Shown: positions 11,722 to 47,691 of the stretch, one piece after another
Numbering within the stretch: the stretch's first letter is position 1
How the letters are laid out: every line of letters starts with the position of its first letter
NCBI RefSeq assembly: GCF_057098645.1
Contig: NZ_CM169472.1
Reading direction: 5' to 3' (one strand)
DNA length: 64,000 bases
Position numbers and translations under genes: made by a program
The notes under the pieces: model-generated
Databases searched by the model: none
Seen by the model: the letters and a program-made list of their open reading frames with translations, nothing else
What the model was told of the DNA's origin: nothing

Positions 11722-12822
11722 TCATTCCATTTCGAAATCATCAATCCTCACTTCAAGCTCCAGACTGGTCGTAAAACCATTATCCGGGCTTACAGTATGC
11801 GTCAGAGTCGTAATGGTCCATTCCGCATCATCTATCGGCTGTTTAAAGCCACTGACTTTCACTGGCATTTCCGTGTAGAGATCTGCCCGCCCTTCCGCCA
11901 GTTGTAGCGAGAATGACGCAACGCCACGTTGCAGGCGTTCCCACTGCATTTTCGCTGCCCGTTCAGCGTTGCTCCGGTTGGCATAAGTGCGATTAAGTAC
12001 CAGCACGTTTTCATCCGTCCCCACCAGGTAATCGCCCTGCTTCGCTTCCGGCTCTTTCTTCTGCTTCTTAGTCCTGCGCTTACGCTTCACCGTAGTGCTT
12101 TCTTTCTTCGCGGGTTCGCGGGTATGCAACCAGCTGGCAATTACCCCCGTGTAGGCTCCGCGATCTGCCAGGGTAAAGCGGTGACTGTCGCCGTCCTTGC
12201 GTGTGATAGTGATCACCGGCAGTGGTTTACCAGTGGCGCTTTTGCCCTGTCCCTGCCGGATGAATAACAGATTGCCATTTTTCACCGACGCGATGGCACC
12301 GTACTGGCGCGCCAGCCGCATCAGAAAACTGCCGTCACTCTCATTAGTCTGGTCTATATGCTCTACGAGCTTATCCGACAGGTCTTTACCCAGTGCCATC
12401 TTCAGCTTGTGCCGCGAGGCTATTTCCTTCACCACTTCCCCGACGGTGGTCTTATGCCACGATTTTTCACGGCGGGTATTCAGCGTTTCCCGAAAATCAG
12501 CACTTCGCGCCCGGATAGTCAGGCGGTCCGGTGCGCCAGTGTGTTCAATCTCGTCCACCGTGAATGCCCCTTTCGGGAAAAGCGGCTGCCCCTTCCAACC
12601 CAGCGCCAGCGTAACGACCGCACCACGGCGCGGCAGCACGATTTTTCCGTCGGCGTCGTCCAGCTCCAGATCAAGCTGGTCTGCTTCAAAGCCCCGGTTA
12701 TCCGTCAGCGTCAGCCCCATCAGGCGGTTGTCCAGCACTGTGGTGATATCCCTGCCCTCAATACTGATGCTGAATGCGGGAGTTTTGTTGCCTTTGTTAA
12801 GCAGTTCAGAGCTGAAATTCAC
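11722..12822 (-). CDS. Tail protein gpD-like
   Basis: 366-aa ORF in the P2 gene D position, overlapping U stop; recalled similarity to P2 D. Confidence 0.75.
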   Translation of the reverse strand: MNFSSELLNKGNKTPAFSISIEGRDITTVLDNRLMGLTLTDNRGFEADQLDLELDDADGKIVLPRRGAVVTLALGWKGQPLFPKGAFTVDEIEHTGAPDRLTIRARSADFRETLNTRREKSWHKTTVGEVVKEIASRHKLKMALGKDLSDKLVEHIDQTNESDGSFLMRLARQYGAIASVKNGNLLFIRQGQGKSATGKPLPVITITRKDGDSHRFTLADRGAYTGVIASWLHTREPAKKESTTVKRKRRTKKQKKEPEAKQGDYLVGTDENVLVLNRTYANRSNAERAAKMQWERLQRGVASFSLQLAEGRADLYTEMPVKVSGFKQPIDDAEWTITTLTHTVSPDNGFTTSLELEVRIDDFEME

Positions 12823-13304
12823 GACAGCAGCCCTCCCACCGTTTTACTGATATCGCTTAAGACAGATGTTGCCGTGTCCTGAAGATTATTCAGTTGCGCA
12901 CTGAGATCACCGAACATATCGGACAGGGATTCATCCACGCGTTTGAGCGACAGGGTGAACTCAATCCGGCGCGGCATACCGTCGCGGAAAAACTCCGTTT
13001 TAGTCTGATTCAGTCCCTCAATCACATACATGCCGTAAATCGTGCCGCTGCCTTCAATCAGGGGCCATGCTTTCCCCTGTTCTGCCATCTGCTCCAGTGC
13101 CAGCAACGACAGCCTGCCGCCTGTTATCTCCGGCATAAGAACACCGGAAAGCGTCAGCATGTCGTTGTCCGGTCCCAGAAACTGCGTGGACGGACGACGA
13201 TTTACCCGGCTGTTTGCCGCATGTCGCCAGCTGCGTTGATACTGCAGTTCCTGATACGGAACGGTGCGCAGCATAAACACGTACAATCCCAGCACCATCA
13301 TCAT
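12819..13304 (-). CDS. Tail protein gpU-like
   Basis: 161-aa ORF between tape measure and D, with 4-bp overlaps typical of the P2 tail operon. Confidence 0.7.
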   Translation of the reverse strand: MMMVLGLYVFMLRTVPYQELQYQRSWRHAANSRVNRRPSTQFLGPDNDMLTLSGVLMPEITGGRLSLLALEQMAEQGKAWPLIEGSGTIYGMYVIEGLNQTKTEFFRDGMPRRIEFTLSLKRVDESLSDMFGDLSAQLNNLQDTATSVLSDISKTVGGLLS

Positions 13305-16300
13305 GCGTCGTATCCCCCCTGATCGCTGTAGTTACTCCTGGCTTTTGCCTTCAGCCTGCGTTCACGTTCATCAAGCTGGCGTGCCACCTCCCGCGCAATA
13401 TCCTGCGCACTTTGTCCTGGCTGCGTCTGAATGATGATCTGCGTCGGTGCCTCAATCCGTTGAACGGGCGGCACAGTGGCTGCGCGACTCACAATTGCTT
13501 CTCCACCTTTCGCGGGAAGTGCCAAAGGGTGCAACGGTGGAAGCTCTGCTGGCGCGGCAGCAACGCCCATCATTCCGGCAACAACGGCAGCCAGTGCAGC
13601 TGTATTTCTCCGGCTGGTCACATTTGCCGGGCCGTTAACAATTTCCGGCCCGTTTTCACCGACGATGCCAAACTGCCCGCGCGGGATATACCCGCCGCTG
13701 TCATACATCCCCGCAAAGCCATATCCCCATGACGGAAAACCACCCGATGGCATCATCACTTTACCGTCTGCATTCACCGTCGCAGGTTGCTGACGCGTCA
13801 CGCTTTCCGGCAGTTTTGCCTTTGCGGCCTCTTTACTGACAATGCCAAGTTTCTCCAGCAACCAGGAAACGCCGGATTTCAGGGAGTCCAGCGGATGCAT
13901 GACCATATTCAGCCCTTCCGCCAGTACCTCTCCGAATCGCCGCCCCATTGCCGCTGCACTCTGCAGTTCGGCAGAGGTCGACTTAACGGGCGTCAGCAGA
14001 TCAGTAAACCAGCCCCACAGCGCCTGTACTTTGTCGCCAATCCACTGGAACACGGGCTTAAGCGGTTCGAATGCTGCACTGACGGGACCTGCCGCCGCTT
14101 TGAATCCTTCCACCACGCCACCAAGAAATGCGGTGATGGGTTGCCAGTATTTCCAGACAACCAGCGCCACGCCCGCCAGTGCAGTAACCACAAGACCTAT
14201 CGGACTGAGTAGAGCACCTAACAGACCAGATACGGCATACAGGGCAACGCGCAGCATCGCCAGTGGACCAGATGCCAGTACTCGCAGCACCGTGCCTGCG
14301 GCGACCAGTCCACCGCGCAGTACCGCCAGAGGATTCATAAACATCACAGCAACAGCACGTAAACCGGATAATCCAGACCGCAAAAGTGCAACCGGCGCAC
14401 CTGCTACAGTTTTCAGGACATTTCCCGTCAGTGATGCCGTGCGGCGCAAAGACGACAACGGCGCAGTAAGTAAACCTGCGGCGTTGCCCGATGAAGCAAG
14501 CCCGCGTCGCAGCAGTGCAAGTGGTGCGCCAGCCAGCCAGGACAACGCGATGCTGGTTCGTGTTACTGCTGCCGTAACGGAAGGTAACGTTTTGATACCC
14601 AGCACAGAGAATCCCAGACGGATCACTGCCAGCGGCCCCAGCACTGCAGCCAGCGCCACCGCTAAGGTGCCGAGGCCTACGGTAACCGCAGCCACAACAG
14701 CCGCTACTTTCATCAGTGTGCCTGTCAGTTCCGGGTTAGCTTCCACCCAGCGGCGCAACGCCCCCGTGATGCTTTTCACCGTGTACAGAATATCCATCAG
14801 CGGCTGGCGCAGCGTTTCGCCCAGGCTGCTGAAGGTGTTCTGCGCTCCGGTTTTAACCAGCAACCACTGCGCAGAAAGTGAGTCCTTGTTAATGTCGGAT
14901 TCTTTCTGCATCGAACCGAGCGCATCATTGCCCGCTGTCAGTTTTAGCTGGCGCTGCAGTTCCGGCAGGTTGTTTGCCAGTTTCGCCGCATCATCGCCAA
15001 ACTCTTTACCAAACAACATGGTCATGGCAGACAGGCGCTTATCCTGCGGCAGTGCGTTCACCTTCTCCAGCACGCGCTGGATGGTTCCCATCGCATCCTT
15101 CGTCATCTGCTTTTCAATCACTTCAGGATTGAGTTTCAGCAGATTCATCCCTTCAAAAAAACTCTTGCTTTGCATGGTGGCAATGGACAATTCACGCACC
15201 ATCGCGTTTGCTGCACTGGCTGCAACCTCCGGCGCAGCGCCCAGTGTCAGGAAGGTGGAACCCAGCGCCGCCGCTTTACGATAATCCAGACGGTCAGCCA
15301 CACCGCCCAGACGTTGCATCACATCAATGATGTCTGCCCCTTTCGACATGGCGTTATCATCCAGATAATTCAGCGCATCACCGAGCTGTTCAATATTGCG
15401 GGTAGGGATTTTGTAGAGCTGGGCGATTTTCCCCAGACTTTCTGACAGTTCATCCGCTGGCAGCTCAAAGGCTGTTGCCGCCTTTGCTGCCGTACTGGCG
15501 AAGGCCAGCAGGTCACGTTTCTGATCTTCCCAGCTGTCGTCAGGGTTTGCGACGTTCATGCGCGCACCACCTTCAACCAGTGCAGCGAAGTCCACCGCAC
15601 CGTTTTCCATCGGCAACTGTTCGCTGGCAGCCTTGATGGCATCCTGCATTTCATAAAAACGTGCAGTGCGGTTGCCATTATCGTCACGCAGACCATTGAC
15701 CTGCTTTGCCACACCTTTCATGGCATCTTCCATGCTGGTATAGCTTTTTACTGCCGCCATCACTGGCGCACCCATTGCCAGCCCTGCAGCCGTGGTGGTG
15801 GCTCCGGCACCTGCAATACGATCACGCACCTCCAGCGAACGGGTATAACTGGCACGCGCTGCATTCATCCTGCGCTGAGCTTCCCCCAGTCGCTTCAGCC
15901 GCGCCTCCTGTTTCGAAAGTTCCTGGTTATAACGTGATGTTTCACGGGCTAAACGGGCAGTTGCTCCCGCATCGTCTTTCGCAGAAATTCCCGCCCGGTA
16001 CAGTTCAGCACGCACAAGCGCCGTCTGCTGCTGCAGCTTTTTCTGGCGTTCTTCCAGGCGCTGAATAGCCAGCCGTTGACGGCCCAGAGCAACAACCTGA
16101 CGTTGCGAAGGCGGCCCCATCGCTCCCAGTTCCTGACTGAGCAAATTTGCACGCTGGCGGGCATAGTTCAGCCTGTCGCCTAATTTCTGATTTTCTGCCT
16201 GCAGCTTTCGGAAGCTGTCCAGACTGCTCCCGGCCTGATCAAGCTGCTTTATTGCATCGCGGGATTTTTTGACAGCAGCAGCCAGTTCTCTTGAACTGGC

Positions 16301-16378
16301 CTGCGCAGATCGAAATGGGCGGGTGAGCTTGTCAACCGCATTAAGAATGACCTGCAGACGCAGGTTGTTATCACTCAT
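13301..16378 (-). CDS. Tail tape measure protein (gpT-like)
   Basis: 1025-aa Ala/Leu-rich coiled-coil protein with hydrophobic central segment, downstream of E/E'. Confidence 0.85.
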   Translation of the reverse strand: MSDNNLRLQVILNAVDKLTRPFRSAQASSRELAAAVKKSRDAIKQLDQAGSSLDSFRKLQAENQKLGDRLNYARQRANLLSQELGAMGPPSQRQVVALGRQRLAIQRLEERQKKLQQQTALVRAELYRAGISAKDDAGATARLARETSRYNQELSKQEARLKRLGEAQRRMNAARASYTRSLEVRDRIAGAGATTTAAGLAMGAPVMAAVKSYTSMEDAMKGVAKQVNGLRDDNGNRTARFYEMQDAIKAASEQLPMENGAVDFAALVEGGARMNVANPDDSWEDQKRDLLAFASTAAKAATAFELPADELSESLGKIAQLYKIPTRNIEQLGDALNYLDDNAMSKGADIIDVMQRLGGVADRLDYRKAAALGSTFLTLGAAPEVAASAANAMVRELSIATMQSKSFFEGMNLLKLNPEVIEKQMTKDAMGTIQRVLEKVNALPQDKRLSAMTMLFGKEFGDDAAKLANNLPELQRQLKLTAGNDALGSMQKESDINKDSLSAQWLLVKTGAQNTFSSLGETLRQPLMDILYTVKSITGALRRWVEANPELTGTLMKVAAVVAAVTVGLGTLAVALAAVLGPLAVIRLGFSVLGIKTLPSVTAAVTRTSIALSWLAGAPLALLRRGLASSGNAAGLLTAPLSSLRRTASLTGNVLKTVAGAPVALLRSGLSGLRAVAVMFMNPLAVLRGGLVAAGTVLRVLASGPLAMLRVALYAVSGLLGALLSPIGLVVTALAGVALVVWKYWQPITAFLGGVVEGFKAAAGPVSAAFEPLKPVFQWIGDKVQALWGWFTDLLTPVKSTSAELQSAAAMGRRFGEVLAEGLNMVMHPLDSLKSGVSWLLEKLGIVSKEAAKAKLPESVTRQQPATVNADGKVMMPSGGFPSWGYGFAGMYDSGGYIPRGQFGIVGENGPEIVNGPANVTSRRNTAALAAVVAGMMGVAAAPAELPPLHPLALPAKGGEAIVSRAATVPPVQRIEAPTQIIIQTQPGQSAQDIAREVARQLDERERRLKAKARSNYSDQGGYDA

Positions 16379-16504
16379 CGTTGGCCCCGCTTCTCTGAAT
16401 CGCTTTATACCGCCATTCCAGCACTTCGGTCAGCGGCATAACGTCAGTAACGGATGGCGGCCAGTGAAAGATGGTGGCGATATCTGCCACCAGATCGTCA
16501 ACCG

Positions 16505-16807
16505 TCAGGCTGTCGGTAAACCGGCAAGCACCGACTTCTTCAACAAAAAAGTGACAACCTCAACCGACATGGCAGTGAGATCTGCCGGGTCCATCTCTGC
16601 GATTTCCTGTGCAGTCAGTGCCGGACTGGAGATGCGGGGGATCACGGTCATCATCGCGTTCACATCCATATCCATAATGGCCTGCAGGCGTGTGCCGCGC
16701 AGCGCACCGGACTGCGGTTTACGCAGCACAATTTCGGTAATTTCTGTTTTACCGCGCATGATGGGAGTATCCAGTTTAATAGTCTTTTCAGTCTGCTTAT
16801 CGCTCAT
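16505..16807 (-). CDS. Tail assembly chaperone gpE-like (with E' frameshift extension)
   Basis: 100-aa ORF upstream of T; ends ...VVTFLLKKSVLAGLPTA with the T6G slippery heptamer inside. Confidence 0.75.
   Translation of the reverse strand: MSDKQTEKTIKLDTPIMRGKTEITEIVLRKPQSGALRGTRLQAIMDMDVNAMMTVIPRISSPALTAQEIAEMDPADLTAMSVEVVTFLLKKSVLAGLPTA
16541..16555 (-). other. Programmed -1 ribosomal frameshift site (TTTTTTG) for E+E' product
   Basis: Minus-strand sequence gtc act TTT TTT G ttg near the 3' end of gene E, the same slippery motif and position as P2 E/E'. Confidence 0.55.
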
Positions 16808-16861
16808 TTTGCTGTCCTGTAAATTGGGTTCTGGCGCGGCATTCCGCGCCGTTCAGATACA

Positions 16862-17377
16862 TCAGAGGCCGAGGGCGTTGCGGTGCGCTTCCATCAGGTC
16901 CACACCGTCCACAATTTCCACCATGTTGATAAGGTCCACTTCATAGAGCACCTCACCATTGATAGTCAGCTTCGCGTAGCTGTTGGTACTGGTCACTTTG
17001 GTGGTGTTGCTTTCGCCCGTCTTCCACTCGCCGGAATCCACTTCTTTGTGACGTCCACGCACCACAAGCTCCACGGCCTGCACTTCTCCGGTATCGTCAC
17101 GCTGGATAGAGCCGGTGAAGCGCAACTGGATGCCATCCACCGTGGCTTTGCCCATCTGTTTAAACAGCAGCAGTTCAGTACCACCAATGGAAAATTCTGT
17201 GTCCAGCGCACTGTCATCAAGCCCCAGATCCACATCCACTGCACCCGGCATTCCGCCGCCGCGATACTTCTCATATTTGCGGGTGAATTTCGGCAGCGTC
17301 AGCGACTCAACGATCCCCTGCCAGTTGTTCCCGTCATTAAACAGGTTCAGGTGTTTTAATTTGCGTGGTAAAGCCAT
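16862..17377 (-). CDS. Tail tube protein (gpFII-like)
   Basis: 171-aa ORF immediately downstream of the sheath gene; P2 synteny. Confidence 0.8.
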   Translation of the reverse strand: MALPRKLKHLNLFNDGNNWQGIVESLTLPKFTRKYEKYRGGGMPGAVDVDLGLDDSALDTEFSIGGTELLLFKQMGKATVDGIQLRFTGSIQRDDTGEVQAVELVVRGRHKEVDSGEWKTGESNTTKVTSTNSYAKLTINGEVLYEVDLINMVEIVDGVDLMEAHRNALGL

Positions 17378-17386
17378 GTTGTCCCC

Positions 17387-18559
17387 TTACGCGCTGACCT
17401 GGCTAGAGAAATTCACCAGGTACTGATCGGTGATGCGCTGACGCAGCATCAGGTTTTCAAGTGGCGGCACTGGCGTGTAGTCGTAGTCGATGGTGAGTTT
17501 TCCGGCTTTCAGCGTGTCTTTGTCGTTCACCGACTCATCCAGCCAGCAATCACCACCAATGAGATAGCCCTGACTGACCAGGCTGCGCATTTTGGCGCGG
17601 ATCCCCTCGATAATGTCGCGGGCCAGCGACGGGTTAAGCGGTTTATCCACCGCCCACATGTGTGCTTCTGCCATCGTGTCCATCAGCACCTGCGCCGTGC
17701 GGGTGTAGTTTTCGAAGGCAAAGAGCGGGTCATCACTCAGGCAGCGGGAACCCCAGAAGCGGAAACCGTCTTTACGCACAAGCGTGGTGACGTCGTTCTG
17801 GTTCAGCAGACCTGCATCGGTTGCCGGGTCCTGCAGATCCCAGAACACATCAGCAGAAATTCCGGTGACACCGTTCACGCCCACGTTGGACAGGCTTTTG
17901 TGCCATCCGGTCTGCTCGTCAATTTTGGCGCGCAGACCAAGCGCACGGGCGGTGGCATATGCCGTTGCTTCGGCATTCAGCACCGTGTCCCAGCCAGTAA
18001 AGTCAGGCCAGATCAGCATCCCTTCGCGCTGGCTGAAGTTTTCACGGTAAGTGATCGCCTCCTGTACCGTCTTGCAGCCATACGCTGACAGGTAAGCAAA
18101 TCCACGCAGGCTTTGCGCCACGCTCAGCAACTCAGTAGCTACCGCCTTGGTGTCGTGGCCTGGCACGCCGAGAATGCGCGGTTTAACGCCGAGCTGTGAC
18201 TGGGCAGATAACAGGGCTTTCATGCCTGTTTTTTTACCTTCAGCGGTCACTGCTCCGATGATATTGGTCGTGGTTTCTTCTTCCGTTTCACCCTGCGGCA
18301 CACGCACAACAACGGTCACGGGTTTTGCCTGGTCAGCGATGGCGTCCAGCGAACGGGCCAGCGTACCGGACTCACCCGCTTTACCGCTGGCAGTCAGCAC
18401 ATCAGTGATCAGCACGGGTTTATTAAGAGGAAACATTTTTGCATCGGCATCATCGCCCGTGCAGACCATACCCACGATGGCGGTGCTCACCGTGGTAATG
18501 GATCGGGTGCCTTCGTTGACTTCAACAACGCGCACTCCGTGGTGGTAATCCTGAGCCAT
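17387..18559 (-). CDS. Contractile tail sheath protein (gpFI-like)
   Basis: 390-aa ORF, P2 FI-like size and position. Confidence 0.85.
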
Positions 18560-18701: not shown

Positions 18702-19268
18702 TCAGGGCGATTCATTGTTCTCATTCGCCGGAAATTTTCTATAAATGGTAGAAACGCCCACATCAAAAATCAGTGCAATACGCTGTCTTGATTCTCCGGC
18801 CTCGAGTAAACGTCCAATCTGTGCCCACTGTTCGGTAGTCAACTTAGGACGGCGTCCACCTACTCTGCCTTTAGCACGAGCTGCAGCCAGCCCTGCCCTG
18901 GTACGTTCAACTATCAGTTCGCGTTCCATTTCAGCCAGGGCACCCATGACATGAAAAAAGAAACGGCCCATTGGGGTACTGGTATCAATACTGTCAGTCA
19001 GACTTCTGAAATTCACGCCGCGCTGGCGCAACTCTTCTATCAGAGTAACAAGATGCCGCATACTGCGCCCCAACCTGTCCAGCTTCCAGACAACCAGTGT
19101 GTCACCTGCCGATAGTGTCCTGAGCAGTTTTTTAAGCCCCGGTCGGTCGGACTTCGTGCCGCTGATTTTATCCTCAAAAATCAGCTCACATCCTGCACAC
19201 TCCAGCGCGTTACGCTGCAATTCCGTATTCTGGTCATTTGTTGACACGCGGACATAGCCAATAAGCAT
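18702..19268 (-). CDS. Serine site-specific DNA invertase (Hin/Gin/Cin/Pin family)
   Basis: 188-aa ORF MLIGYVRVSTNDQNTELQ... with catalytic Ser region and C-terminal HTH (GVSTIYRKF); adjacent to the invertible tail-fibre segment. Confidence 0.85.
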   Translation of the reverse strand: MLIGYVRVSTNDQNTELQRNALECAGCELIFEDKISGTKSDRPGLKKLLRTLSAGDTLVVWKLDRLGRSMRHLVTLIEELRQRGVNFRSLTDSIDTSTPMGRFFFHVMGALAEMERELIVERTRAGLAAARAKGRVGGRRPKLTTEQWAQIGRLLEAGESRQRIALIFDVGVSTIYRKFPANENNESP

Positions 19269-19323
19269 GATGGATCCCCTGAATAAAAACCGGGGATGAT
19301 GCCAGTTAGCCGTAATCTCTGCA

Positions 19324-19349
19324 TTTTCTTAAACGTTGGTTTGGGAGAA
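19324..19349. repeat. Invertase crossover site (left), gix/hix-like
   Basis: TTTTCTTAAACGTTGGTTTGGGAGAA; about 20 of 26 positions match the inverted partner at 21269-21294. Confidence 0.5.
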
Positions 19350-19790
19350 GCGGCAAAACGAAATGTGGGCAACGGGGAAAACCAAATCCCTGATATGTCT
19401 TTCTGGACGGTTACTGGTGGCAATGGAAATTTTGTGATTCGTCAACCTGACGGACTAATCATTCAGATGGTTACTGTAAGTATAAGCGGTCCAGTGGCGA
19501 TGAATGGAATGACTGATAATGCTTATGCCATTACAGGTTCTAATAAGTCTTATATTGCCACAGCCACATTGCCCTTTGTATTTCCTAATAAGGTGCTGGG
19601 CGTTATCCCTCTGGTATCAACAACAGCTTATGGTGGTGTATCCAGTAATATTACAGGTTCATACGCGACGGCGGTTTGTTCTTTTGCCGCTGTCAGGGGG
19701 AATAATACGATTGTGTTCAAAGTCGACAAACCACTGAATGCAGCCTTTCCTTCAGATACCAGCGTCTCAGCGTTAATCATTGGACGGTAA
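19350..19790 (+). CDS. Alternative tail-fibre C-terminal segment (Hc'), expressed only after inversion
   Basis: ORF begins at the crossover site, lacks an N-terminal domain, and is followed by a tail-fibre assembly gene; mirrors the Mu G-segment S'/U' arrangement. Confidence 0.55.
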   Translation, partial: AAKRNVGNGENQIPDMSFWTVTGGNGNFVIRQPDGLIIQMVTVSISGPVAMNGMTDNAYAITGSNKSYIATATLPFVFPNKVLGVIPLVSTTAYGGVSSNITGSYATAVCSFAAVRGNNTIVFKVDKPLNAAFPSDTSVSALIIGR

Positions 19791-19792
19791 GA

Positions 19793-20236
19793 ATGAACTC
19801 AGTATTCTTTTCACCCGCAAGTAAAAGTTTTTATCTGCAAGAATTGTTTCCAGAATATGAGGATGCGGGAACGCTTCCTGATGATGTTATTGAAATTACC
19901 AGAGAAACATATGAGCAATTTCTTGGGCTGCATCCAGAAGGGAAAGAAATTGGCGCTGACAGTTCAGGACGGCCAATATGGATTAATTCCCCGCCGCCTT
20001 CAAAAGAGGATGAGATGCTGGCGGCTGAAATGAAAAAGATATCTTTGGTTTCAGAAGTCAATACCTACATCAATACCCATCAGTGGCCTGGCAAAGCTGC
20101 TATTGGTCGTCTGAAAGGTTACGAGCTGGAACAATATAATTTATGGCTGGATTATCTGGACGCACTGGAACTGGTTGATACCGCCAGTGCTCCAGATATT
20201 GAATGGCCTACGCCTCCGGTAGTTCAGGCCAGATGA
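19793..20236 (+). CDS. Alternative tail-fibre assembly chaperone (G'-like)
   Basis: 147-aa ORF with the conserved Tfa C-terminus ...LWLDYLDALELVDTASAPDIEWPTPP. Confidence 0.75.
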   Translation: MNSVFFSPASKSFYLQELFPEYEDAGTLPDDVIEITRETYEQFLGLHPEGKEIGADSSGRPIWINSPPPSKEDEMLAAEMKKISLVSEVNTYINTHQWPGKAAIGRLKGYELEQYNLWLDYLDALELVDTASAPDIEWPTPPVVQAR

Positions 20237-20813
20237 CATCCGGCGCGGTGCTGGTATCTGTTGCAGTCACCGCGTCAATGTAATCCAGCACAGCGTTAAG
20301 CCGGGTTGTTTCTGCCTGCGTCAGCTTCCGCCCGGCCTGCAATTTCAGCTGAATCAGACTAATGGAAGCCATAGCAGCATCAATCAGTGACTGGCGCCGT
20401 ACTTCTGCCGCGTCTACTGCGGCGTTATGCTGTGCCTCAGTATCGGTCACCCATTTCTCACCATCCCATTTATCGTATGACGTTAACGGGGCGATAGTGG
20501 TTGTATTTTCAGGGTAATCACCCGGAACTGTGATTTCTTTTGATTTTCCTGTTTCGGTGCTATAGACGATTTCACCGCGATGGTCTGGCACATATTCCCA
20601 TGAGTTAAAATCTGCAGAACGGCAAATTGCATAACCAGCTTTATATGAGCCAGGAGCATCTAAACAGGAACATGCCGGGATACCGACACCCACAGCAAGA
20701 TATTCAGTTGATGTGGAAATATATTCCCGTGTTTCACCATCATAATTATAAACGGTAATGTCTCCGGCCTTTGTGGCGATGAGTTCATTATTTAATACAG
20801 CTTTACTTATCAT
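20208..20813 (-). CDS. Tail-fibre assembly chaperone (gpG-like)
   Basis: 201-aa ORF with Tfa C-terminal motif ...LNAVLDYIDAVTATDTSTAPDVIWPELP; downstream of H. Confidence 0.75.
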   Translation of the reverse strand: MISKAVLNNELIATKAGDITVYNYDGETREYISTSTEYLAVGVGIPACSCLDAPGSYKAGYAICRSADFNSWEYVPDHRGEIVYSTETGKSKEITVPGDYPENTTTIAPLTSYDKWDGEKWVTDTEAQHNAAVDAAEVRRQSLIDAAMASISLIQLKLQAGRKLTQAETTRLNAVLDYIDAVTATDTSTAPDVIWPELPEA

Positions 20814-22330
20814 GCAGCCCTCACAATATAATTAAAGGCGATGTTACGGGAGCGGGTTTCAGATGCTGTGCGAACTGAGCGAGATGCGTCGAATGTCCAG
20901 TTATAAGCGCCATAACCCTCAATAATTTCGGCTTCCTTTAGACCTGTAGATAATACTTGCCCATGTTGACTAAATGGCCCTGAACTAAGTACGTCTCTAA
21001 AAAGCTGGGTACGCCCAAAAGAACCAACAATATTCTGAATTGCATCATTCTGTGCAGATAATAAGTTACGACCAGAGTCAATCCCGCGCCCATCATCCCA
21101 GCCACGAATAAATTCACCGCGTAAATCTGGTAATTTTAATGTTGGGTAAGCCTTTGCCAGATTTGGGTACTTTTCAGAAGAAAATGCTGCTCCGTTACAT
21201 TTTAGCCAGCCCGTTGGTGGTGTTTCTAAGGGCCACGGAACGGGCACACCAACAGGCAGTGCAGAGCCTTCCCCCAAACCAAGGTATGCGAGAAGACCAG
21301 CTACATCCTTTCCACTCAAATGAGTCAGCGTCTCATCCAGCGGTTGTTTACCTGCCAGCGCATTAAGCATTGTCGTGGCAAAGTTCGGGTCATTCCCCAG
21401 CGCTGCCGCCAGTTCGTTCAGTGTATCCAGTGCCGCAGGTGCAGAACCCACCATTGCCGCAATCGCCGATTTCACAAATGCCGTGGTGGCAATCTGTGTA
21501 TTGTTGACCGACTGTGCCGCAGTAGGTGCGGTTGGCGTTCCGGTGAGTGCCGGACTCGACAGCGGCGCTTTCAGTGCCAGCGCATTGTTAATGGTGGTAC
21601 TGAATTTCGGATCATTGTTAATGGCTGCGGCTATTTCTTTCAGCGTGTCCAGCGTGGCTGGCGCACCATTAATAAGAGCCGTCAGAGCCGCCTGAACAAA
21701 CGCGGTGGTCGCAATCTGCGTGGTGTTATTCCCTGCGGCTGGCGTTGGCGCTTTGGGTGTCCCGGTAAACGTCGGACTTTCTTTGGGTGCATACTGTGAA
21801 TGCGGGTCCGGTGCGGCAAGATGTTTTGCCATCTGATCATCCGCGTACACCTTCAGCTCCAGTGCCTTGTCATCCACATACTTGCGGGTTGCCAGCACTA
21901 CGGCAGGGTCGATTTTCAGGGTGATATTGTCCGTGCTGCTGGTAATCAGCACCATGCGCACGGTCTGAGTGCGCCCGCTACCTTCAGCCAGTTGCGGCTT
22001 ATAGCTTTCCGGGCAGTTGCCCACGGCAATCAATGCCCCGGACTCATCAAACAAGCCCACTTCACGTATCCACCAACCGCCCTCGTTTTCAGGGATCACC
22101 TGTTCGGCAATAATCTGGCTGCTGTTCTGCAGGTCGATATAGAGCATATTCAGCGCAGCCCGGCGTTTCTCATTTACCAGTGCAGTCTGCTTTGAGTCTG
22201 GCGTTGGCAATACTCCGCCGCCATCGCCGACCGCCATATGGGTAATTTTTAGCGGCACACCGAGCGCGGCGGCGCTGGCAAGTTTCGCCGCGCCAATATC
22301 CGTCAGCAGGGTATAAAATTTTGTGCTCAT
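20810..22330 (-). CDS. Tail fibre protein (gpH-like); C-terminal ~160 aa lie inside the invertible segment
   Basis: 506-aa ORF with repeated tail-fibre-type motifs (TTQIATTAFV... twice); a crossover site lies inside it. Confidence 0.8.
   Translation of the reverse strand: MSTKFYTLLTDIGAAKLASAAALGVPLKITHMAVGDGGGVLPTPDSKQTALVNEKRRAALNMLYIDLQNSSQIIAEQVIPENEGGWWIREVGLFDESGALIAVGNCPESYKPQLAEGSGRTQTVRMVLITSSTDNITLKIDPAVVLATRKYVDDKALELKVYADDQMAKHLAAPDPHSQYAPKESPTFTGTPKAPTPAAGNNTTQIATTAFVQAALTALINGAPATLDTLKEIAAAINNDPKFSTTINNALALKAPLSSPALTGTPTAPTAAQSVNNTQIATTAFVKSAIAAMVGSAPAALDTLNELAAALGNDPNFATTMLNALAGKQPLDETLTHLSGKDVAGLLAYLGLGEGSALPVGVPVPWPLETPPTGWLKCNGAAFSSEKYPNLAKAYPTLKLPDLRGEFIRGWDDGRGIDSGRNLLSAQNDAIQNIVGSFGRTQLFRDVLSSGPFSQHGQVLSTGLKEAEIIEGYGAYNWTFDASRSVRTASETRSRNIAFNYIVRAA
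21269..21294. repeat. Invertase crossover site (right), inside gene H
   Basis: TTCCCCCAAACCAAGGTATGCGAGAA, inverted relative to the site at 19324-19349; central AAACCAAGGT resembles hix/gix. Confidence 0.5.
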
Positions 22331-28067: not shown

Positions 28068-28706
28068 TCAGCGGCTGTCATTGCGCAGTCTGCGCTCCAG
28101 CTGCTGTTTGTCTTTTTTCACGCCACAGCGGGGATCGAGCTGTAACGCATGGTTGAGATGATTAAGGGCGGAAGCCGGATTGCTTTCACTCAGAACAGCG
28201 CCAATCGCTTTATGCAGACGCGCCCGTGACTGGTCCGGCATATCCAGACCGTCTGTCAGCTCCAGCGTCTGCAGCAACAGATCGGCATCAAAGCCGGTGG
28301 CGGCAAGCATTGCGCTCTGCGCTGCATCTGCCATTTCCTCTGCCAGCACGGTCTGCACATTGCGGTTACCCAGCGGCATCACCCAGCCATGACGCAGGGC
28401 ATGACGCCCGATCTCCAGCGCTCCGGCATCAATGCGCCACAGCATCACGTACATCAGCACGTCATCCTGTTGAGCGCCTCCGGCAGCCAGGACGCCCTCC
28501 GCCCAGGCGGCATATTTCGGCAGCAGCTCCACCTTTATTTCCGCTTTTTTGACCGTGGACTGAACGCCCTTGAGACGGCGGCGGTCTTCCGCCAGTTGCA
28601 GCAGCATCAGGTCATAGCCAGATGCGTGGCGAACGCTGCCGCCCTCGCGGGCGGCCTGTTCAGCCTGAACGCGCAGGCGATGCTGCCGTGCGGGACTCAG
28701 GCTCAT
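28068..28706 (-). CDS. Terminase small subunit gpM-like
   Basis: 212-aa ORF between N and L. Confidence 0.75.
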   Translation of the reverse strand: MSLSPARQHRLRVQAEQAAREGGSVRHASGYDLMLLQLAEDRRRLKGVQSTVKKAEIKVELLPKYAAWAEGVLAAGGAQQDDVLMYVMLWRIDAGALEIGRHALRHGWVMPLGNRNVQTVLAEEMADAAQSAMLAATGFDADLLLQTLELTDGLDMPDQSRARLHKAIGAVLSESNPASALNHLNHALQLDPRCGVKKDKQQLERRLRNDSR

Positions 28707-33579: not shown

Positions 33580-34362
33580 TTAATCATTTTCTGGTTTGTT
33601 TGAAGTTTCATTTACAGGCTGGATCACATCCTTATTAAAATGGCGCGTTTGTTCGACTTTACCTTTTCTAGAAAGGCCTGCACCTTCTAAAATTGAATCG
33701 ATTTTATCGCCACCATTAGCTAAGAAATGCTTAAAATTTTCCGATGATAACATTTCCATTATAGGCGATGAATGGGTAGCTTCTTCAACAAATCTTAATG
33801 GCGGCTCCTCCAGTCGAGTAAGTGCATTACCAAATAACCTTTGGGTAAAGTCGCTATCAAGTTGGACAGCTTCTCTTCTATATCCCTCATAAGCTTTGGA
33901 TACTGAGGCCTTGAATTCATAATCCTCTGCCAATCTGAATCGCTGACCAATTTGTTTCGTTGCTAACCAAGCAAACCATAATGGTGCTCCAACACTTAAA
34001 ATGGAGAGTAAAAGTTGAATAGCTAACTTTATACCTGATGCGTCAGGGTTTGACAGATATGCTTCGAGAGCATGTAAACGCGTATAACCAACAGCAGCAC
34101 CTGCAACCAAAGCACCTATTAGTCCACATACCCACCAACGTATGCTCCGGTTTAATTTTTCTGCTTTATCTTGAAATGCCCCAGCCAAACCTTTTGAAGT
34201 AGTAGTTCTAAATGCCTCTTCACATTTATTAATATAACCCTGAGCTTCTTCACGGAGAGATTGTAAATAATCTTTTGCATCCTTGCTTGCATTCTGTTTC
34301 AGCGCCAAAATTTCTTGTCTGGCCTCATCTACGATTTTGGAGTTCTCTTCAGTCTCTTTAAG
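33580..34362 (-). pseudogene. 3' part of an IS1-disrupted cargo gene (two-TM protein of unknown function)
   Basis: Frame continues from the 8-bp IS1 target duplication; encodes two hydrophobic helices (WWVCGLIGALVAGAAVGY, LLLSILSVGAPLWFAWLA) and a C-terminal soluble domain. Confidence 0.6.
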
Positions 34363-34377
34363 GGTAATGACTCCAAC

Positions 34378-34881
34378 TTATTGATAGTGTTTTATGTTCA
34401 GATAATGCCCGATGACTTTGTCATGCAGCTCCACCGATTTTGAGAACGACAGCGACTTCCGTCCCAGCCGTGCCAGGTGCTGCCTCAGATTCAGGTTATG
34501 CCGCTCAATTCGCTGCGTATATCGCTTGCTGATTACGTGCAGCTTTCCCTTCAGGCGGGATTCATACAGCGGCCAGCCATCCGTCATCCATATCACCACG
34601 TCAAAGGGTGACAGCAGGCTCATAAGACGCCCCAGCGTCGCCATAGTGCGTTCACCGAATACGTGCGCAACAACCGTCTTCCGGAGCCTGTCATACGCGT
34701 AAAACAGCCAGCGCTGGCGCGATTTAGCCCCGACGTATCCCCACTGTTCGTCCATTTCCGCGCAGACGATGACGTCACTGCCCGGCTGTATGCGCGAGGT
34801 TACCGACTGCGGCCTGAGTTTTTTAAATGGCGGAAAATCGTGTTGAGGCCAACGCCCATAATGCGGGCGGTTGCCCGGCAT
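34378..34881 (-). CDS. insB: IS1 transposase InsB
   Basis: 167-aa [21 protein letters not shown]... matches IS1 InsB. Confidence 0.9.
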
Positions 34882-35075
34882 CCAACGCCATTCATGGCCA
34901 TATCAATGATTTTCTGGTGCGTACCGGGTTGAGAAGCGGTGTAAGTGAACTGCAGTTGCCATGTTTTACGGCAGTGAGAGCAGAGATAGCGCTGATGTCC
35001 GGCGGTGCTTTTGCCGTTACGCACCACCCCGTCAGTAGCTGAACAGGAGGGACAGCTGATAGAAACAGAAGCCAC
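34800..35075 (-). CDS. insA: IS1 InsA
   Basis: 91-aa ORF with zinc-finger [16 protein letters not shown]... matches IS1 InsA. Confidence 0.9.
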
Positions 35076-35130
35076 TGGAGCACCTCAAAAACACCATCAT
35101 ACACTAAATCAGTAAGTTGGCAGCATCACC

Positions 35131-35747
35131 TCTTTAAGCATGCCATTAATATTTCTGCAATGCTCAACTGCGCTATTGTAAACATTTTTAACTTCATCAT
35201 TTGTTTCACGAAGCATTTTTACTGTTGTCGGTAGATTCTCGGCTGCATCATATGCTTCATTTATAGTTTTAATTTTCTCTTCTATATTACCAGTTTCAGC
35301 TGCAATTGCAGATATACCTGAATTATATAATTCTAATCTGCGTAAAATTTGCTTTGGTAATAAATTTCTATCTTTCAGCCTCTCAAATGAAAAAAGGTCA
35401 TTAATCCTATGAGAGATATATAACATTGAAATAACATAAGATGGTATAGCGGTCTGTTGAACTGATGCGTTACCATTGTTTATATGATTAATATTTTGCT
35501 GAGCATGATCCAGAGTGTAAATGAGCGCATCAATTACTGCAATGTCATCTGAAGATGGTACAAATTCCTGCATCTGATTAATTCTATCAGATAACATTTT
35601 TGGTAGTTCTATCAGATCCTCTTTATGTAAAAAAGGAAATGTGTACGGCCCAAGGTTTATAAAATCTTCCACAGGGAATACAAGACCATTAAGTGTTGTA
35701 TGTAAATTATCTAGTTTCTCTTTTAATTCAGTTAGTTTTTCGTTCAT
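35131..35747 (-). pseudogene. 5' part of the IS1-disrupted cargo gene (N-terminal helical domain)
   Basis: About 205 native codons (MNEKLTELKEKLDNL...NINGMLKE), then the reading frame enters the IS1 inverted repeat. Confidence 0.6.
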
Positions 35748-35841
35748 TAAAAAAATCCTTTATGACGCTATAGAACTTCCAGAGTAATCCGATAAAGATA
35801 TCATAAGACAATATTTTGGTATAAACACTTATTGCGCGCGC

Positions 35842-35860
35842 TCGTATCCCCGCCACGCCT
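35842..35860. other. Candidate phage cos site (186-like cohesive end)
   Basis: Minus-strand GGCGTGGCGGGGATACGAG shares its first 13 nt with the recalled 186 cohesive end and resembles that of P2. Confidence 0.45.
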
Positions 35861-36032
35861 GCCCGCTTTATGTAGTGGTTTTCATGCACCTGCATGATCT
35901 ACGCAAAAGCCCGCCAGAACTGGCGGGCCTTAACACAAAAGATCCTCAAACGATCATGCGATCTCATGCAGCATAGACATGCGCGCTTATGCAGAATGTG
36001 CAAAATCGTAACATACTCAGTAAGCGTGAAAA

Positions 36033-36710
36033 CTAGAACGTGACAGCCTTGTCAAAGCCAGAAATAATTGTATAAGAAATAGACGAGTTATCAGCCTTGT
36101 TCACTTTGAACTTGGCACCTTTGTAAGCGATAACGTCACTTCCCTTAGAATCTACAGAAAAATCTGTTGTAAATGCTGCACGAGCCATATCGTTTGCAAA
36201 TTCACGATAGGTGAACTTCATTACACCGCCTGCATTTCCATTGTATTCGATAGTCTTAACCAATGAGTTACTAACTCGACACAGCCCATCAGGAACACGT
36301 TTGATAGAAATTTCTGATGCAGTATAAGAAGTACCATTTGGCGGTGATATCTCATTTTTTGCAGCATCGTAACTAACATAATCAACATAGTTACCGATTT
36401 GCCCATAGAGATTTTTTAACGCAACAGCTTGAGGGTTATGATAATTGCGGTAAATTCCATTCCCCTCACTGCAATATGTACCAGCAGCGATAGAAGACAA
36501 TGCACCATTAGCCGCACCAAGTTCTAGTACGTCCGTTTTAAATCCAGTAGCAGATGTGATAATGGGATCGCCCATGTAGGCGGTAGCACTTTGCCCAATA
36601 GCAGGCTTCACCACTTCAATAGCAGTGATATTTCGGTTAGAAGCATGTGGCACGCAACCAGTTAGGATTACAGCAAGAGATATTGGTAACGCTACATTAT
36701 TAATTTTCAT
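36033..36710 (-). CDS. Lipoprotein of unknown function (prophage cargo next to cos)
   Basis: Signal peptide with lipobox MKINNVALPISLAVILTGC and a Gly/Ser/Thr-rich mature domain; AT-rich. Confidence 0.7.
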   Translation of the reverse strand: MKINNVALPISLAVILTGCVPHASNRNITAIEVVKPAIGQSATAYMGDPIITSATGFKTDVLELGAANGALSSIAAGTYCSEGNGIYRNYHNPQAVALKNLYGQIGNYVDYVSYDAAKNEISPPNGTSYTASEISIKRVPDGLCRVSNSLVKTIEYNGNAGGVMKFTYREFANDMARAAFTTDFSVDSKGSDVIAYKGAKFKVNKADNSSISYTIISGFDKAVTF

Positions 36711-37410: not shown

Positions 37411-39416
37411 TTAATACAGGTTCCGCCACTTATCATCTTCCTGCAAACGCTGGTTCCGATAGAAGATACGCAGGCCTGCTCCTGACGGAATACTGCCGCC
37501 GCGAAGGAGTAAATCGACCTCTTTCTCGCTGCCATCAAATCCTCTGGATTTCAGTTCATAGACGAGCTGCTGTCGTTGATGGTCTGTAATTCGCTGTTTG
37601 TAGTCTCTACGCCGTTTCGGTTTCACCAGACGTAACCTTGCAGCCAGTTCCCGGCGCTCCTTTTTGTTCATACTGTGCAGGTAATCGTGCAACTCCTTGT
37701 CATCCATGCGGGTAAAGTCCGTTCTGGGGTCCCCATCAGCTGATTTATCTTTCTCCTGTTGGTTCAAATTTTCAGCAAGGGGACAGTTATTGCCACGAGT
37801 CCAAGGGGCGCAAGCGCCCTGGTCGGCTGCCGCCTCCTGAACGTCAACGGCCTTACGAACCATTTTCCACTTCACTGCATGAGTACAAATCTTGCCCTCT
37901 GCAATGGGTGACCAGATGCCATAAATACGAATACCGTGATCGCCATAGGCGGTCGGCTCTTCGTTAATTTCATAAGCTGTTCTGATAAGGTGATATTTGC
38001 GGGGAACCAGTACGCCGCCCTGCTTCATAATGTAGGTGGCAAAACAACCAGCATCAGCAGCAGCCAGAATGGCATCAAGGCGCGGGTTATCCAGTACCGG
38101 CGCACCTGCTTTTTTGTCACCCTGTTGCCTTGCCGCCTGACCAGCCAGCAATCGCAATTCACGGTACGCCTGACGCCCCGGAATACCAAAGAAGCGAAAT
38201 TGCTGAACACGATGCAGAGACGCCCAGGCATTAACGTATTCAGCGTTATCACGCAGGGATTTACCCGTTTCCTTGCTGATTTCGCCAGCCAGACCACGCC
38301 CATCAATGTTCTTACTGATGTATTTCGCGATGTAGCTTGTCGGCGTTCCTTTTCGCGGGTTAATCAGCTCAGACTTAAAGCGCGGCCCCGTGTTATTGCC
38401 CAGCTCCTCACGGTCTTCACGGATAGCAAACTTACGCAACAATGCAGTAATGGCGCGGCGGTCTTTTTTGCGCATGAAACACAACAGGTGCCAGTGAACT
38501 GTGCCGTCATGATGCGGCTCAGCCACCCGCACGCCATACCAGCGCAACCCGGCTTTGTGCATCGCCTTACGAAATGCAGCAAACATACCGACCAGATAAT
38601 CGCTGCTTTGTCTTACCGTCGCATTTGTCCATGTCGGGTTGGGTCTGCCGTTATTGAGCGTGGAATGGAAACGTGACGGACAGGTAATGGTGTAGAAAAC
38701 GGCGCAGTCACCGCGCATTTCCGCGATAAGCTCCAGACCTTTAACACAGGCCATCATCTCATTGCGACGATGCGCCGGGTTGCTGCTGCTGGCGTTTACC
38801 ACATCTTCCATATCCAGCGCGTCTCCGTCTTCGTTCACCAGTTCATGAGAACGGAAAAACTCCAGTGACTTACGGCGCTGCTCACGTTTATGCATCACGG
38901 CTTCATAGCTGACATAGGGAGATGCTTTTTTGCTGACCAGGCAGACAGCACGCAACTGCTCTTCCCGCCATTCGCAACGCATCTTCCACAATTTCCGATA
39001 CCACCAGTCGGCGCACAGCATACGCGCCAGCGAACCCGGAATGAGTTCATAGGGCACGGGTTTACGGCGGTTTCTTTTCCGACGGAGTTGCTCAAACGCA
39101 GGCGGGATGACATCCAGACGCAGGGTTTCCGCTGCCACCTTTTCCCATGTCTTGCGGATTTCTTCTGGCTTAACGTCATCGGTGGCATACAAATCACCAC
39201 AAGCTGCATCAAGGCACATACTCATATGCGCAGCTACCAAGGTGGACAGGCGTTTCACCTGATCCTGACTCATTTCAGGCAGGATCAGCAGGCCGTCCAG
39301 CCCTTCATGGCTTGCCATAAAGCGAAAAGATGCAGATAGCTGACTGTCGCGTACATGCTCCAGTCGTTCCAGACATGGCTTAATCGTCTCACGTAAATAG
39401 CGGGAATAAGCCTTTG
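37411..39416 (-). pseudogene. Replication initiation endonuclease gene A, 3' portion (split by IS21-family insertion)
   Basis: 635-aa ORF with rolling-circle initiator motif ([11 protein letters not shown]); frame stays open upstream of the annotated Met as far as the IS boundary. Confidence 0.8.
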
Positions 39417-39515
39417 TGCGTATTCCGCTCTATTCGATCACGGATTGGCATCGAAGTCCGATCAGCGATTCGCATCCATTCGATCAACCGGGAACTTAAC
39501 TTTTTCTACCGCTTT

Positions 39516-40271
39516 TTAACGCGTTTTTTCGCTGCTTTCCACTACCGGGGGATTTTTCCTCAGTGACTCTCCCTGAAGGACCACTCGGTGTGAGTTATGT
39601 ACCAGTCTGTCCAGGATGGCATCTGCTGTTGTTGGGTTCTCCATCAGACCATGCCATTTATCTACCGGGAACTGGCTTACCACTATCGTGCTGCTTTGTC
39701 CGTAACGATCCTCTATGAGCTCCAGAAGGTCATTACACTGGGCGTTACTTAACTGTTCCAGCCCCAGATCGTCCAGGATTAGAACCTGTATTTTTTGCAA
39801 CTGTTTCAGATATTTCAGCCAGCTGCCATCAACACGTCCCTGAGCCAGTTGTTCCAGTAATCGCCCGGTTCTACAGTACCGGACGCTGTGTTTCTGTCGA
39901 CATGCCTGTTCGCCCAGCGCATTGGCTATCCAGCTCTTGCCACATCCTGTCGGACCGGTTATCAGCAGGTTTTTCCTGTGGGTTATGTAGTGGCCGTTCA
40001 GCAGTTCTCTCATCTGTTCAGCCCGCAGACCTCTTGAGGCCGGATAGCGCAGCCCTTCCGGTGTTGCCTGGTATTTCAGGCCGGCATTTTTTCTCAACCG
40101 TGCCACACGGCTGTTTTCCCTGCTCAGAAGCTCGTCATCAACCAGCAGCGTCAGCCTTTCCTCGAACGACAGTTCGTCGTAGGTCTGAGGCGTTTCCCGC
40201 TGCCGTATCAGGCTCCCGGCCATCGCCGGGAGTTTCAGTTGGGTCAGTTTGTTTAACAGGTTATCACTCAT
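39516..40271 (-). CDS. istB: IS21-family helper ATPase IstB
   Basis: Walker A (GPTGCGKS) and Walker B (LILDDLG) motifs; start chosen at MSDNLLNKL. Confidence 0.8.
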   Translation of the reverse strand: MSDNLLNKLTQLKLPAMAGSLIRQRETPQTYDELSFEERLTLLVDDELLSRENSRVARLRKNAGLKYQATPEGLRYPASRGLRAEQMRELLNGHYITHRKNLLITGPTGCGKSWIANALGEQACRQKHSVRYCRTGRLLEQLAQGRVDGSWLKYLKQLQKIQVLILDDLGLEQLSNAQCNDLLELIEDRYGQSSTIVVSQFPVDKWHGLMENPTTADAILDRLVHNSHRVVLQGESLRKNPPVVESSEKTR

Positions 40272-40287
40272 ACTGTTGTTCCTTCTG

Positions 40288-41823
40288 TCAGTGGTAGTAG
40301 CCCGGACCACGCAGGTTTTCATGCTCTGAAGCATATGCCGGATGTTGTTCGCCCTGGCGGGATAATGGAAGCTCCAGGTTCTCCCGATGGTGACGCAGCA
40401 GATTGTCGATAAAGCGTCTGTCAGGGGCGTTATAGTGCAGGGCAACGTAACAGGCCTTTTCCAGCCGTTCCGGGCCGTATTTTTTCTGAAGTGCCAGCAG
40501 CCCCAGAACTGCACGATAAGCCAGTTCCGGATGGGGTTTTGCCTTCAGCATGGATTCAACCACCCGGCCTGTGGACGGGCCCGTACGTTTTCCCTGCTCG
40601 ATCAGGCGTTCCGGTGTCCATGTCCCGTGCTGCCGGTGGCGCTCTGGCATGTGAAGCGGATTGGTTGTGTGTTTATATTCATGTGTGCTGCGCGGATGTT
40701 GCGCCACACACTGCCCCTTGTGCCAGAGCTGTACCACCGACTGCCCCGCCTTCAGTGACAGACGCTGACCGACCAGTTCGTGTGGAACGGAGTACCAGTG
40801 ACGGGCATATTCAACGTGGTAGTCAGGGCCAACCTTCACAGCTTTGTATTCCGTGTATTCATAAGGTGCCAGAGGCAGCGGAGAGAGTGCTGGCGCATCC
40901 AGTATGCGGAAGCGTTCTGCACGGGTTTGATTGCCGTACCCCTTCATTGGCCGGTTATTCATGTCTGTCAGTAACTCCCTAAGGCGCGCATTCAGCGCCC
41001 TGAGCGTGTGGAAGGTTTCATTACGGATGCGGGCAAGAAGCCATCGTTCAACGATGAGGACGCCGTTTTCTGCTTTTGGTTTATCTTTAGGTTTGCGTGG
41101 TCGGGCCGGGATGATAACCGTGCCATAGTGCTCAGCCAGTGCCTGATAACTGTCGTTGATGACAGGCTCATATCGATCGGCCTTTTTCACTGCGCTTCTG
41201 AGGTTATCGGGGATGAGCAGCTTCGGTACGCCGCCCAGGAAGGTCAGGCAACGGCTGTGGGCATTTAACCATGACATCATGTCCTGACCTTCGCACGCTT
41301 CAACGTAGGTATAGTTGGACGCCCCCATTACGGCCACGAAGATTGCCACGCGGCGTATCTCACCGGTGTCCGGATTAATAACAGGAACCGTAGGACCACA
41401 GAAGTCGATAAAAAGCTTTTCGCCGGCACGATGCTCCTGGCGCATGGAGAGACGTCGCGTTTTTTTCCACTCCCGGTAGCAACGGCAGAAGTGCGAGTAT
41501 CCCATCGCTTTGTTACCCGCCTGTGCCTTGTATTCCATCCACAACAGTTGCCGCGTCACACCTGGTTTTCTCATTTCCGTATCGAAGTACAACATGTCAG
41601 GCATTACAAGCTCTGATGCAAAGGTGTCTTTGGGCGGAAAAATGAGTTTCTCCAGCGTGTCATGGGATATATCAGCAGGTAATGGCCATGACAGAGAAGA
41701 GGCTTTGAAGCGGGCAAGAACCTCAAAAACGGTTGAGGCGCTGATGTGTAACGTCAGTCCGATACAACGGTTAGTCAGCTTCTTGTCGAACTTGAGCTGA
41801 AGGATCTTAAAACAGGTTTCCAT
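40288..41823 (-). CDS. istA: IS21-family transposase IstA
   Basis: About 512-aa product with integrase-type catalytic core; start chosen at METCFKILQL. Confidence 0.8.
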   Translation of the reverse strand: METCFKILQLKFDKKLTNRCIGLTLHISASTVFEVLARFKASSLSWPLPADISHDTLEKLIFPPKDTFASELVMPDMLYFDTEMRKPGVTRQLLWMEYKAQAGNKAMGYSHFCRCYREWKKTRRLSMRQEHRAGEKLFIDFCGPTVPVINPDTGEIRRVAIFVAVMGASNYTYVEACEGQDMMSWLNAHSRCLTFLGGVPKLLIPDNLRSAVKKADRYEPVINDSYQALAEHYGTVIIPARPRKPKDKPKAENGVLIVERWLLARIRNETFHTLRALNARLRELLTDMNNRPMKGYGNQTRAERFRILDAPALSPLPLAPYEYTEYKAVKVGPDYHVEYARHWYSVPHELVGQRLSLKAGQSVVQLWHKGQCVAQHPRSTHEYKHTTNPLHMPERHRQHGTWTPERLIEQGKRTGPSTGRVVESMLKAKPHPELAYRAVLGLLALQKKYGPERLEKACYVALHYNAPDRRFIDNLLRHHRENLELPLSRQGEQHPAYASEHENLRGPGYYH

Positions 41824-47603: not shown

Positions 47604-47691
47604 GTTGGCATTACCCCGTAATAACCACCACTGACCACCAACCCAACTTATTGTTTTTACTCTAACTTATTGTTTTCATTAACCCATTTAC

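Follow-up and report, generated by a model that had tools for sequence, protein, structure and literature searches.

The small gene E of the P2-like prophage described here raises the question of whether it encodes one tail protein or two, the second by a change of reading frame shortly before its stop codon. The prophage is carried by an E. coli chromosome, within a stretch of 64,000 nucleotides (contig NZ_CM169472.1, assembly GCF_057098645.1) that was analysed as a whole and is called the window below. An earlier note on this DNA had proposed that a T6G slippery heptamer near the 3' end of E directs a conserved programmed -1 frameshift upstream of the tape measure gene, exactly as in P2, giving an E+E' tail assembly chaperone analogous to lambda G/GT, and had taken this as support for an intact tail module. 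Judged on what is observed directly, namely the anatomy of the site, the homology of both halves to P2 E+E', the conservation of the slip site and the coding conservation of the -1 frame, gene E of this P2-family (Peduoviridae) prophage very probably bears a programmed -1 ribosomal frameshift giving E+E'. The feature itself is already known in the P2 family, having been shown in P2 in 2002; the E/E+E' frameshift is a textbook case of the recoding conserved in the tail-chaperone genes of tailed phages, and its scientific weight here is small. For the P2 E/E+E' frameshift and the FETUD operon (Christie et al. 2002, J Bacteriol 184:6522), as for the P2 work of Xu et al. 2004, we rely on the summary given in Lynch et al. 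2010 (PMC3091744).

The coordinates of the locus are collected in Table 1. As proposed, the heptamer T TTT TTG is present near the 3' end of E (16550..16544) and is placed in the X XXY YYZ register of frame 0, the E-frame codons being ACT TTT TTG (Thr86-Phe87-Leu88), 12 codons ahead of the E stop. The -1 frame does not run into a stop immediately after the slippery site. Read from G16544, it is open for 57 codons (VEEVGACRF...RSGANDE; full translation VEEVGACRFTDSLTVDDLVADIATIFHWPPSVTDVMPLTEVLEWRYKAIQRSGANDE), and the E+E' stop lies within ATGAGTGA, whose ATG (16378) begins gene T, so that E+E' and T overlap by 8 nt. The lower limit of 16378 previously given to the feature is therefore the first base of the tape-measure ATG and has to be corrected, the true end of E+E' being 16371. 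The location 5' of the tape measure is right, since E sits between FII (PF04985) and T (PF10145).

Table 1. Features of the E/E+E' locus and of the adjoining tail genes (positions in the window).
Feature	Position	Strand	Remarks
Gene E, tail assembly chaperone	16505..16807	minus	ATG at 16807, stop 16507-16505; 100 aa, frame-0 product
AGGA ribosome-binding site	16815..16818	minus	7 nt 5' of the E ATG, by direct reading of the sequence
Slippery heptamer T TTT TTG	16544..16550	minus	X XXY YYZ register of E frame 0
E' extension	16371..16544	minus	57 codons of the -1 frame and TGA 16373-16371; G16544 read twice
E+E' fusion, predicted	16371..16807	minus	145 aa, -1 shift at 16544
Dual-coding overlap	16505..16543	minus	Last 12 codons and stop of E / first 13 codons of E'
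39-aa ORF, 'GpE family phage tail protein' (PGAP)	16371..16490	minus	GTG start; C-terminal part of E'
GAGG, Shine-Dalgarno-like tetramer	16558..16561	minus	7 nt 5' of the heptamer; candidate 5' stimulator
GC-rich hairpin	16833..16850	minus	Between FII and E; 7-bp stem GGCGCGG/CCGCGCC, without U-tract; z=-2.3
Gene T, tail tape measure	13301..16378	minus	1025 aa; PF10145; first 8 nt shared with the end of E+E'
Gene FII, tail tube	16862..17377	minus	171 aa; PF04985, E=8.8e-60; directly 5' of E
Gene FI, tail sheath	17387..18559	minus	390 aa; PF04984, PF17482, PF22671; first of the FI-FII-E-E'-T-U-D block
Genes U (12819-13304) and D (~11722-12822)	11722..13304	minus	PF06995 for U; both 100% identical and full length; last genes of the operon, which they complete

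To both halves of the fusion a family can be assigned. The product of gene E matches Pfam PF10109 (Phage_TAC_7, E=8.9e-19, above the gathering score) and PHROG 103 ('tail protein'), and is 100% identical to WP_001281004.1, a 'phage tail assembly protein'. On the fused product PF10109 covers residues 9-88 and PF06528 (Phage_P2_GpE, E=2.9e-18) residues 107-143, the latter being detected only when the -1 frame is included, while PHROG 1756 spans the E/E' junction (residues 85-145). The NCBIfam search gave no match for E or E+E', and the search of the PDB by sequence no solved relative.

When the fusion was aligned with P2 E+E' (142 aa), the two proteins matched end to end and without a gap across the junction, with 48% identity, 71% positives and E=5e-50. 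In the P2 record (NC_001895) E has 91 aa and E+E' is a joined CDS of 142 aa described as '-1 frameshift; essential tail protein', with the shift site annotated; the heptamer of the window is the same sequence in the same register as this site. An E+E' -1 frameshift is also annotated in the records of L-413C, KS5, Smp131 and Mannheimia 1152AP. When the fusions of the window, P2, L-413C, Fels-2 and RE-2010 were all built alike, products of 145, 142, 142, 145 and 145 aa, respectively, were obtained, each with a 57-codon extension and a -1 stop overlapping the start of T. P2 and the window also share the position of E between FII and T, the 8 nt by which E+E' and T overlap (ATGAGTAA in P2) and the lack of a 3' structure directly after the slip site. 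The wording 'exactly as in P2' thus holds for the heptamer, its register and the length of the extension, but not for the distance from the slip site to the E stop, which is 12 codons in the window, as in phage Fels-2, and 6 in P2. The two phages differ further in the length of E (100 aa in the window) and of T (1025 aa against 815 aa in P2), and their DNA identity in the E region is only about 67%.

The nearest named phage group is formed by Fels-2, RE-2010 and SopEPhi (Felsduovirus, of Salmonella), with 86-87% nucleotide identity. In these phages the length of E, the offset of the slip site, the length of the extension and the overlap with T are all identical to those of the window, and the differences consist of a few amino-acid substitutions and of the host, Salmonella instead of E. 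coli. The record of Fels-2 states that functional gpE+E' is formed 'if translational slippage occurs'. In the E region the prophage shares 87% of its nucleotides with Fels-2 and about 67% with P2, and on this comparison it is Fels-2-like. There are relatives closer than Felsduovirus, among them Escherichia phage 500465-1 (97.8%).

A different reading of the same DNA is implied by the current annotation, since at an identical locus RefSeq/PGAP calls E' as a free-standing 39-aa ORF with a GTG start, under a separate CDS named 'GpE family phage tail protein', and not as a recoded E+E' CDS. Such split-out E' genes are found in many phage records and have a PHROG family of their own (PHROG 6416, 39 aa), and a GTG or ATG stands at the aligned position in many relatives, including P2 (ATG). 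If E' were made from GTG16490 without recoding, the heptamer would be incidental. However, the start codon is missing in 4 of 18 sequences, namely RSA1 (Ala), Mannheimia 1152AP (Ile), Vibrio PE003 (Tyr) and phiT5282H (Val, non-start), and GTG16490 is not preceded by a Shine-Dalgarno motif. Residues encoded in the -1 frame 5' of this codon are also conserved (an invariant Asp and a V/I-D/E-D motif), and an independent start of E' would leave unexplained both the in-register heptamer found in 18 of 18 sequences and the frozen synonymous sites described below. We therefore consider independent translation of E' extremely improbable, and under the frameshift reading the proper annotation of the locus is a single recoded product of 145 aa together with the 100-aa E.

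The conservation of the arrangement was followed at several distances. With the fused protein as a tblastn query, 427 phage records were matched, 387 of them covering at least 80% of the query, and among the matches listed the fusion was always matched in two pieces, that is, in two reading frames. Seventeen annotated Peduoviridae from 12 host genera (Escherichia, Salmonella, Yersinia, Klebsiella, Enterobacter, Burkholderia, Ralstonia, Shewanella, Stenotrophomonas, Mannheimia, Aeromonas and Vibrio) were then compared, and in all 17 a slippery heptamer stands in register near the end of E and opens into a -1 ORF of 51-71 codons. The heptamer is T TTT TTG in 12 of them, T TTT TTT in 3, and A AAT TTT and G GGA AAG in one each, and the codon that gives the first T encodes Thr, Gly, Asn, Pro, Ser or Leu depending on the phage, and is invariably T-final. 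Across Peduoviridae the sequence of the heptamer is thus variable, yet the predicted slip-site property is kept. Among 80 IMG/VR relatives, T6G was found in 77 and T6A in 2, at the same offset, and the remaining one was left unscored because its E start was not located. The conservation stated in the earlier note holds (17/17 Peduoviridae and 79/80 IMG/VR relatives).

At close range, in 66 distinct relatives with at least 86% identity, positions 1-6 of the heptamer are invariant and the synonymous sites of ACT and TTT within it never vary, whereas 75% of the other frame-0 third positions of E do, so that the slip site is under selection at the nucleotide level. In the stretch that belongs to E' only, variable sites are distributed as 11, 5 and 24 over the three codon positions of the -1 frame, a periodicity that is the signature of a translated frame; the -1 frame is under purifying selection.

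These data have to be set against the frequency of the motif itself. The window contains 35 copies of TTTTTTG where 21.8 are expected, and when its ORFs were screened for a pattern made up of an in-register XXXYYYZ within the final 25 codons and, after it, a -1 ORF of 50 codons or more, 7 of the 145 ORFs of at least 90 aa (about 5%) matched. The heptamer alone is no better than chance and the pattern is not diagnostic without homology. Since the motif is not rare, these counts were not used as support, and it is by its homology and conservation that the site stands above chance. Among the other ORFs matching the pattern, the hprR/hprS overlap, nleH and spurious ORFs within genes A and P are ordinary. 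A further match, G GGG GGA at 13314-13320, is in register 3 codons before the T stop and would lead in the -1 frame into U, giving a hypothetical T-U fusion, but it is probably due to chance because it is absent from the T/U junction of P2.

The abundance of TTTTTTG, together with the insertion sequences found in gene A and in a cargo gene of the prophage, could also be read as the sign of a chance heptamer followed by the decaying remnant of E' in a defective prophage, nothing functional being made. Against this, no shortening is seen in E, E' or any tail gene, their identity to the copies in other genomes being 99.7-100%, the tail region is present at a coverage of at least 80% in 583 complete E. 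coli genomes, and purifying selection is visible in the -1 frame; the probability left to such a remnant is close to nil.

It may be asked as well whether the change of frame would take place on the ribosome or earlier, by slippage of the RNA polymerase. The addition of one U on the T6 run would let some mRNAs encode E+E' in a single frame, with a junction ...VVTFFVEEVGACR (Phe-Phe-Val) in place of the Phe-Leu-Val expected from a ribosomal shift, the protein being otherwise almost the same. The slip site is indeed a homopolymer run, of 6 or 7 T in most relatives, and fusions of this kind are produced by transcriptional slippage in some phages and IS elements (review PMC5009743). In contrast, the two relatives without a long homopolymer (G GGA AAG and A AAT TTT) fit tandem tRNA slippage and not polymerase stuttering, and the run is always in the X XXY YYZ register, which slippage of the polymerase would not need. 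Runs of 6 are short for efficient slippage by the E. coli RNA polymerase, which also counts against this route. Transcriptional slippage appears very unlikely here.

Under the preferred ribosomal frameshift, the majority of ribosomes would translate E to its stop and give the 100-aa chaperone. A minority, on reaching T TTT TTG, would hold tRNA-Phe in the P site (on UUU) and tRNA-Leu in the A site (on UUG); the two tRNAs would slip one base 5' onto UUU UUU, and translation would resume from G16544 in the -1 frame for 57 codons, giving the 145-aa E+E' that ends just inside T. With the shift placed after Leu88, the predicted junction peptide is ...VVTFLVEEVGACR, that is, Phe-Leu-Val. By analogy with lambda G/GT, the shared E part would coat the tape measure protein, the E' part would recruit tube subunits, and a fixed ratio of E to E+E' would be needed for the assembly of the tail. 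We infer the occurrence and the efficiency of the shift, the tandem slippage of the tRNAs and the chaperone role from the published work on P2 and lambda. In P2, according to the work cited in PMC3091744, E and E+E' are both made and both needed for tail assembly, and for lambda a G:GT ratio of about 30:1 is given in the published work. The reading of E+E' as a tail assembly chaperone, advanced in the earlier note, is supported by the match to PF10109, by the heptamer and register identical to those of P2, and by the end-to-end alignment with P2 E+E', all of which point in this direction at the level of sequence.

The analogy with lambda stands for mechanism and position, a -1 shift just 5' of the tape measure gene giving nested short and long products, but not for homology. 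No sequence homology to lambda G/GT is detectable, since the Pfam scan of the fusion (E<=0.01) returned only PF10109 and PF06528; PF10109 is the TAC family named for E, 41 and 14, and E of the window matches no other TAC family. The tails differ too, that of lambda being non-contractile and those of the P2 type contractile. The lambda heptamer is G GGA AAG according to the literature, against T TTT TTG in the window. Neither G nor GT is present in the virion (PMC5009743, and Xu et al. 2004 as cited in PMC3091744).

E. coli dnaX and IS1 insAB' share with E the tandem slippage on an X XXY YYZ heptamer, which in E is the predicted mode. Their proteins and purposes are unrelated, and their stimulators are different or absent. 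An IS1 is itself present in the window, with the classic -1 site A AAA AAC in its insA (34800-35075, minus strand), so that the window holds a second, unrelated programmed frameshift.

As for stimulators of the shift in E, the RNA 3' of the slip site was folded over 60 and 100 nt, with z scores of -0.06 and -1.15, neither of them significant, and no stimulator on the 3' side is therefore apparent. This agrees with the report on P2 and on its relatives of Burkholderia (PMC3091744). The 100-nt fold of P2 does reach a z of -3.3, but owing to a hairpin that lies over 50 nt away and has no counterpart in the window, and a conserved 3' stimulator was rejected. On the 5' side, dnaX has a Shine-Dalgarno-like stimulator, and the GAGG that precedes the heptamer of E is a candidate only. 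Of the 18 sequences compared, 11 have (G/A)AGGT(G) at this position, and the GAG/AAG codon keeps its third base (a wobble G) in 66 of 66 close relatives. A dnaX-like role of this motif is a rather doubtful possibility, and its conservation is equally well explained by constraint on the encoded Glu/Lys-Val. If the role were true, GAGG would tune the ratio of E to E+E' in P2-family phages, which are otherwise described as stimulator-less.

Hairpins are found in P2 and 186 at the same place between FII and E as the GC-rich hairpin of the window, the 186 record describing its own as 'tI; partial terminator of pJ transcript'. The hairpin of the window may lower the expression of E-T-U-D relative to that of the sheath and tube genes.

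The tail module around E is intact, as had been supposed: every one of D, U, T, E, FII, FI, H, I, J, W, V, S, R and X has its full length and shows 99.7-100% identity to the corresponding gene of an annotated genome, and the tail, head and lysis genes of the prophage are all full length. Intactness does not extend to the whole prophage, in which gene A and a cargo gene are interrupted by IS elements. An IS21-family element (39417-42055; IstA 40288-41934 and IstB 39516-40514, both minus, PF01695 E=2.4e-60) splits the replication endonuclease gene A into fragments at 37414-39420 and 42057-42470, and the prophage is therefore probably replication-defective with its virion genes intact. A complete contractile-tail module is thus kept despite the hit in a replication gene, which bears on the capacity of the strain to make tails or tailocin-like particles.

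The IS1 (34363-35130), with an apparent 9-bp target duplication, splits a 463-aa hypothetical cargo gene beside the portal gene. This gene and one of 225 aa occupy 33583-36710, between portal and dinI, and intact copies of the two are found at L005 41093-43447. P2-like phages often carry defence genes in the region between portal and dinI. Neither of the two cargo genes has a Pfam match, and PADLOC gave only a weak coiled-coil-type similarity to JetC (E=5.8e-4), with no assignment.

Several other features of the virion genes were noted. A Hin/Gin-type serine invertase (18702-19268; PF00239 and HTH_7) is encoded near 27-nt inverted repeats at 19324-19350 and 21268-21294, the latter within the tail-fibre gene H. 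Between the repeats lies an invertible segment of about 1.9 kb, which exchanges the C-terminus of H and a tail-fibre assembly gene, the alternatives being 19296-20236 (plus) and 20208-21294 (minus); P2 is without the invertase and invertible tail-fibre segment found at 18702-21294 of the window. The tape measure has 935 aa in Fels-2, as compared with 1025 aa in the window and the 815 aa of P2 given above, and a longer tape measure predicts a longer tail; repeated hydrophobic segments of Leu/Ala/Gly seem to abound in the C-terminal half of the window's protein. The terminase endonuclease subunit (M homologue, 28071-28706) has a 4-aa in-frame deletion relative to the copy in strain RM14721.

The prophage extends over about 11322-47713 and is 99.9% identical to a prophage of RM14721, where it lies between ybjL and rcdA, whereas in the window it lies between a yed-region porin gene and hchA. 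No exact repeat of at least 12 nt that could be an att core was found between the prophage ends (11322; 47691-47713), where an imperfect AAATG...TTTTGTT similarity can be recognised by eye only. The left flank of the window is 100% identical to O145:H28 genomes, and hchA, hprSR, msrPQ and nle effector genes lie in the right flank. Within the latter flank, 55575-60009 includes the type III effector genes nleF (55575-56144) and an nleH-like ORF (56330-57034) together with transposase ORFs of the IS3 family, which suggests an EPEC/STEC-type background and the remnants of another prophage.
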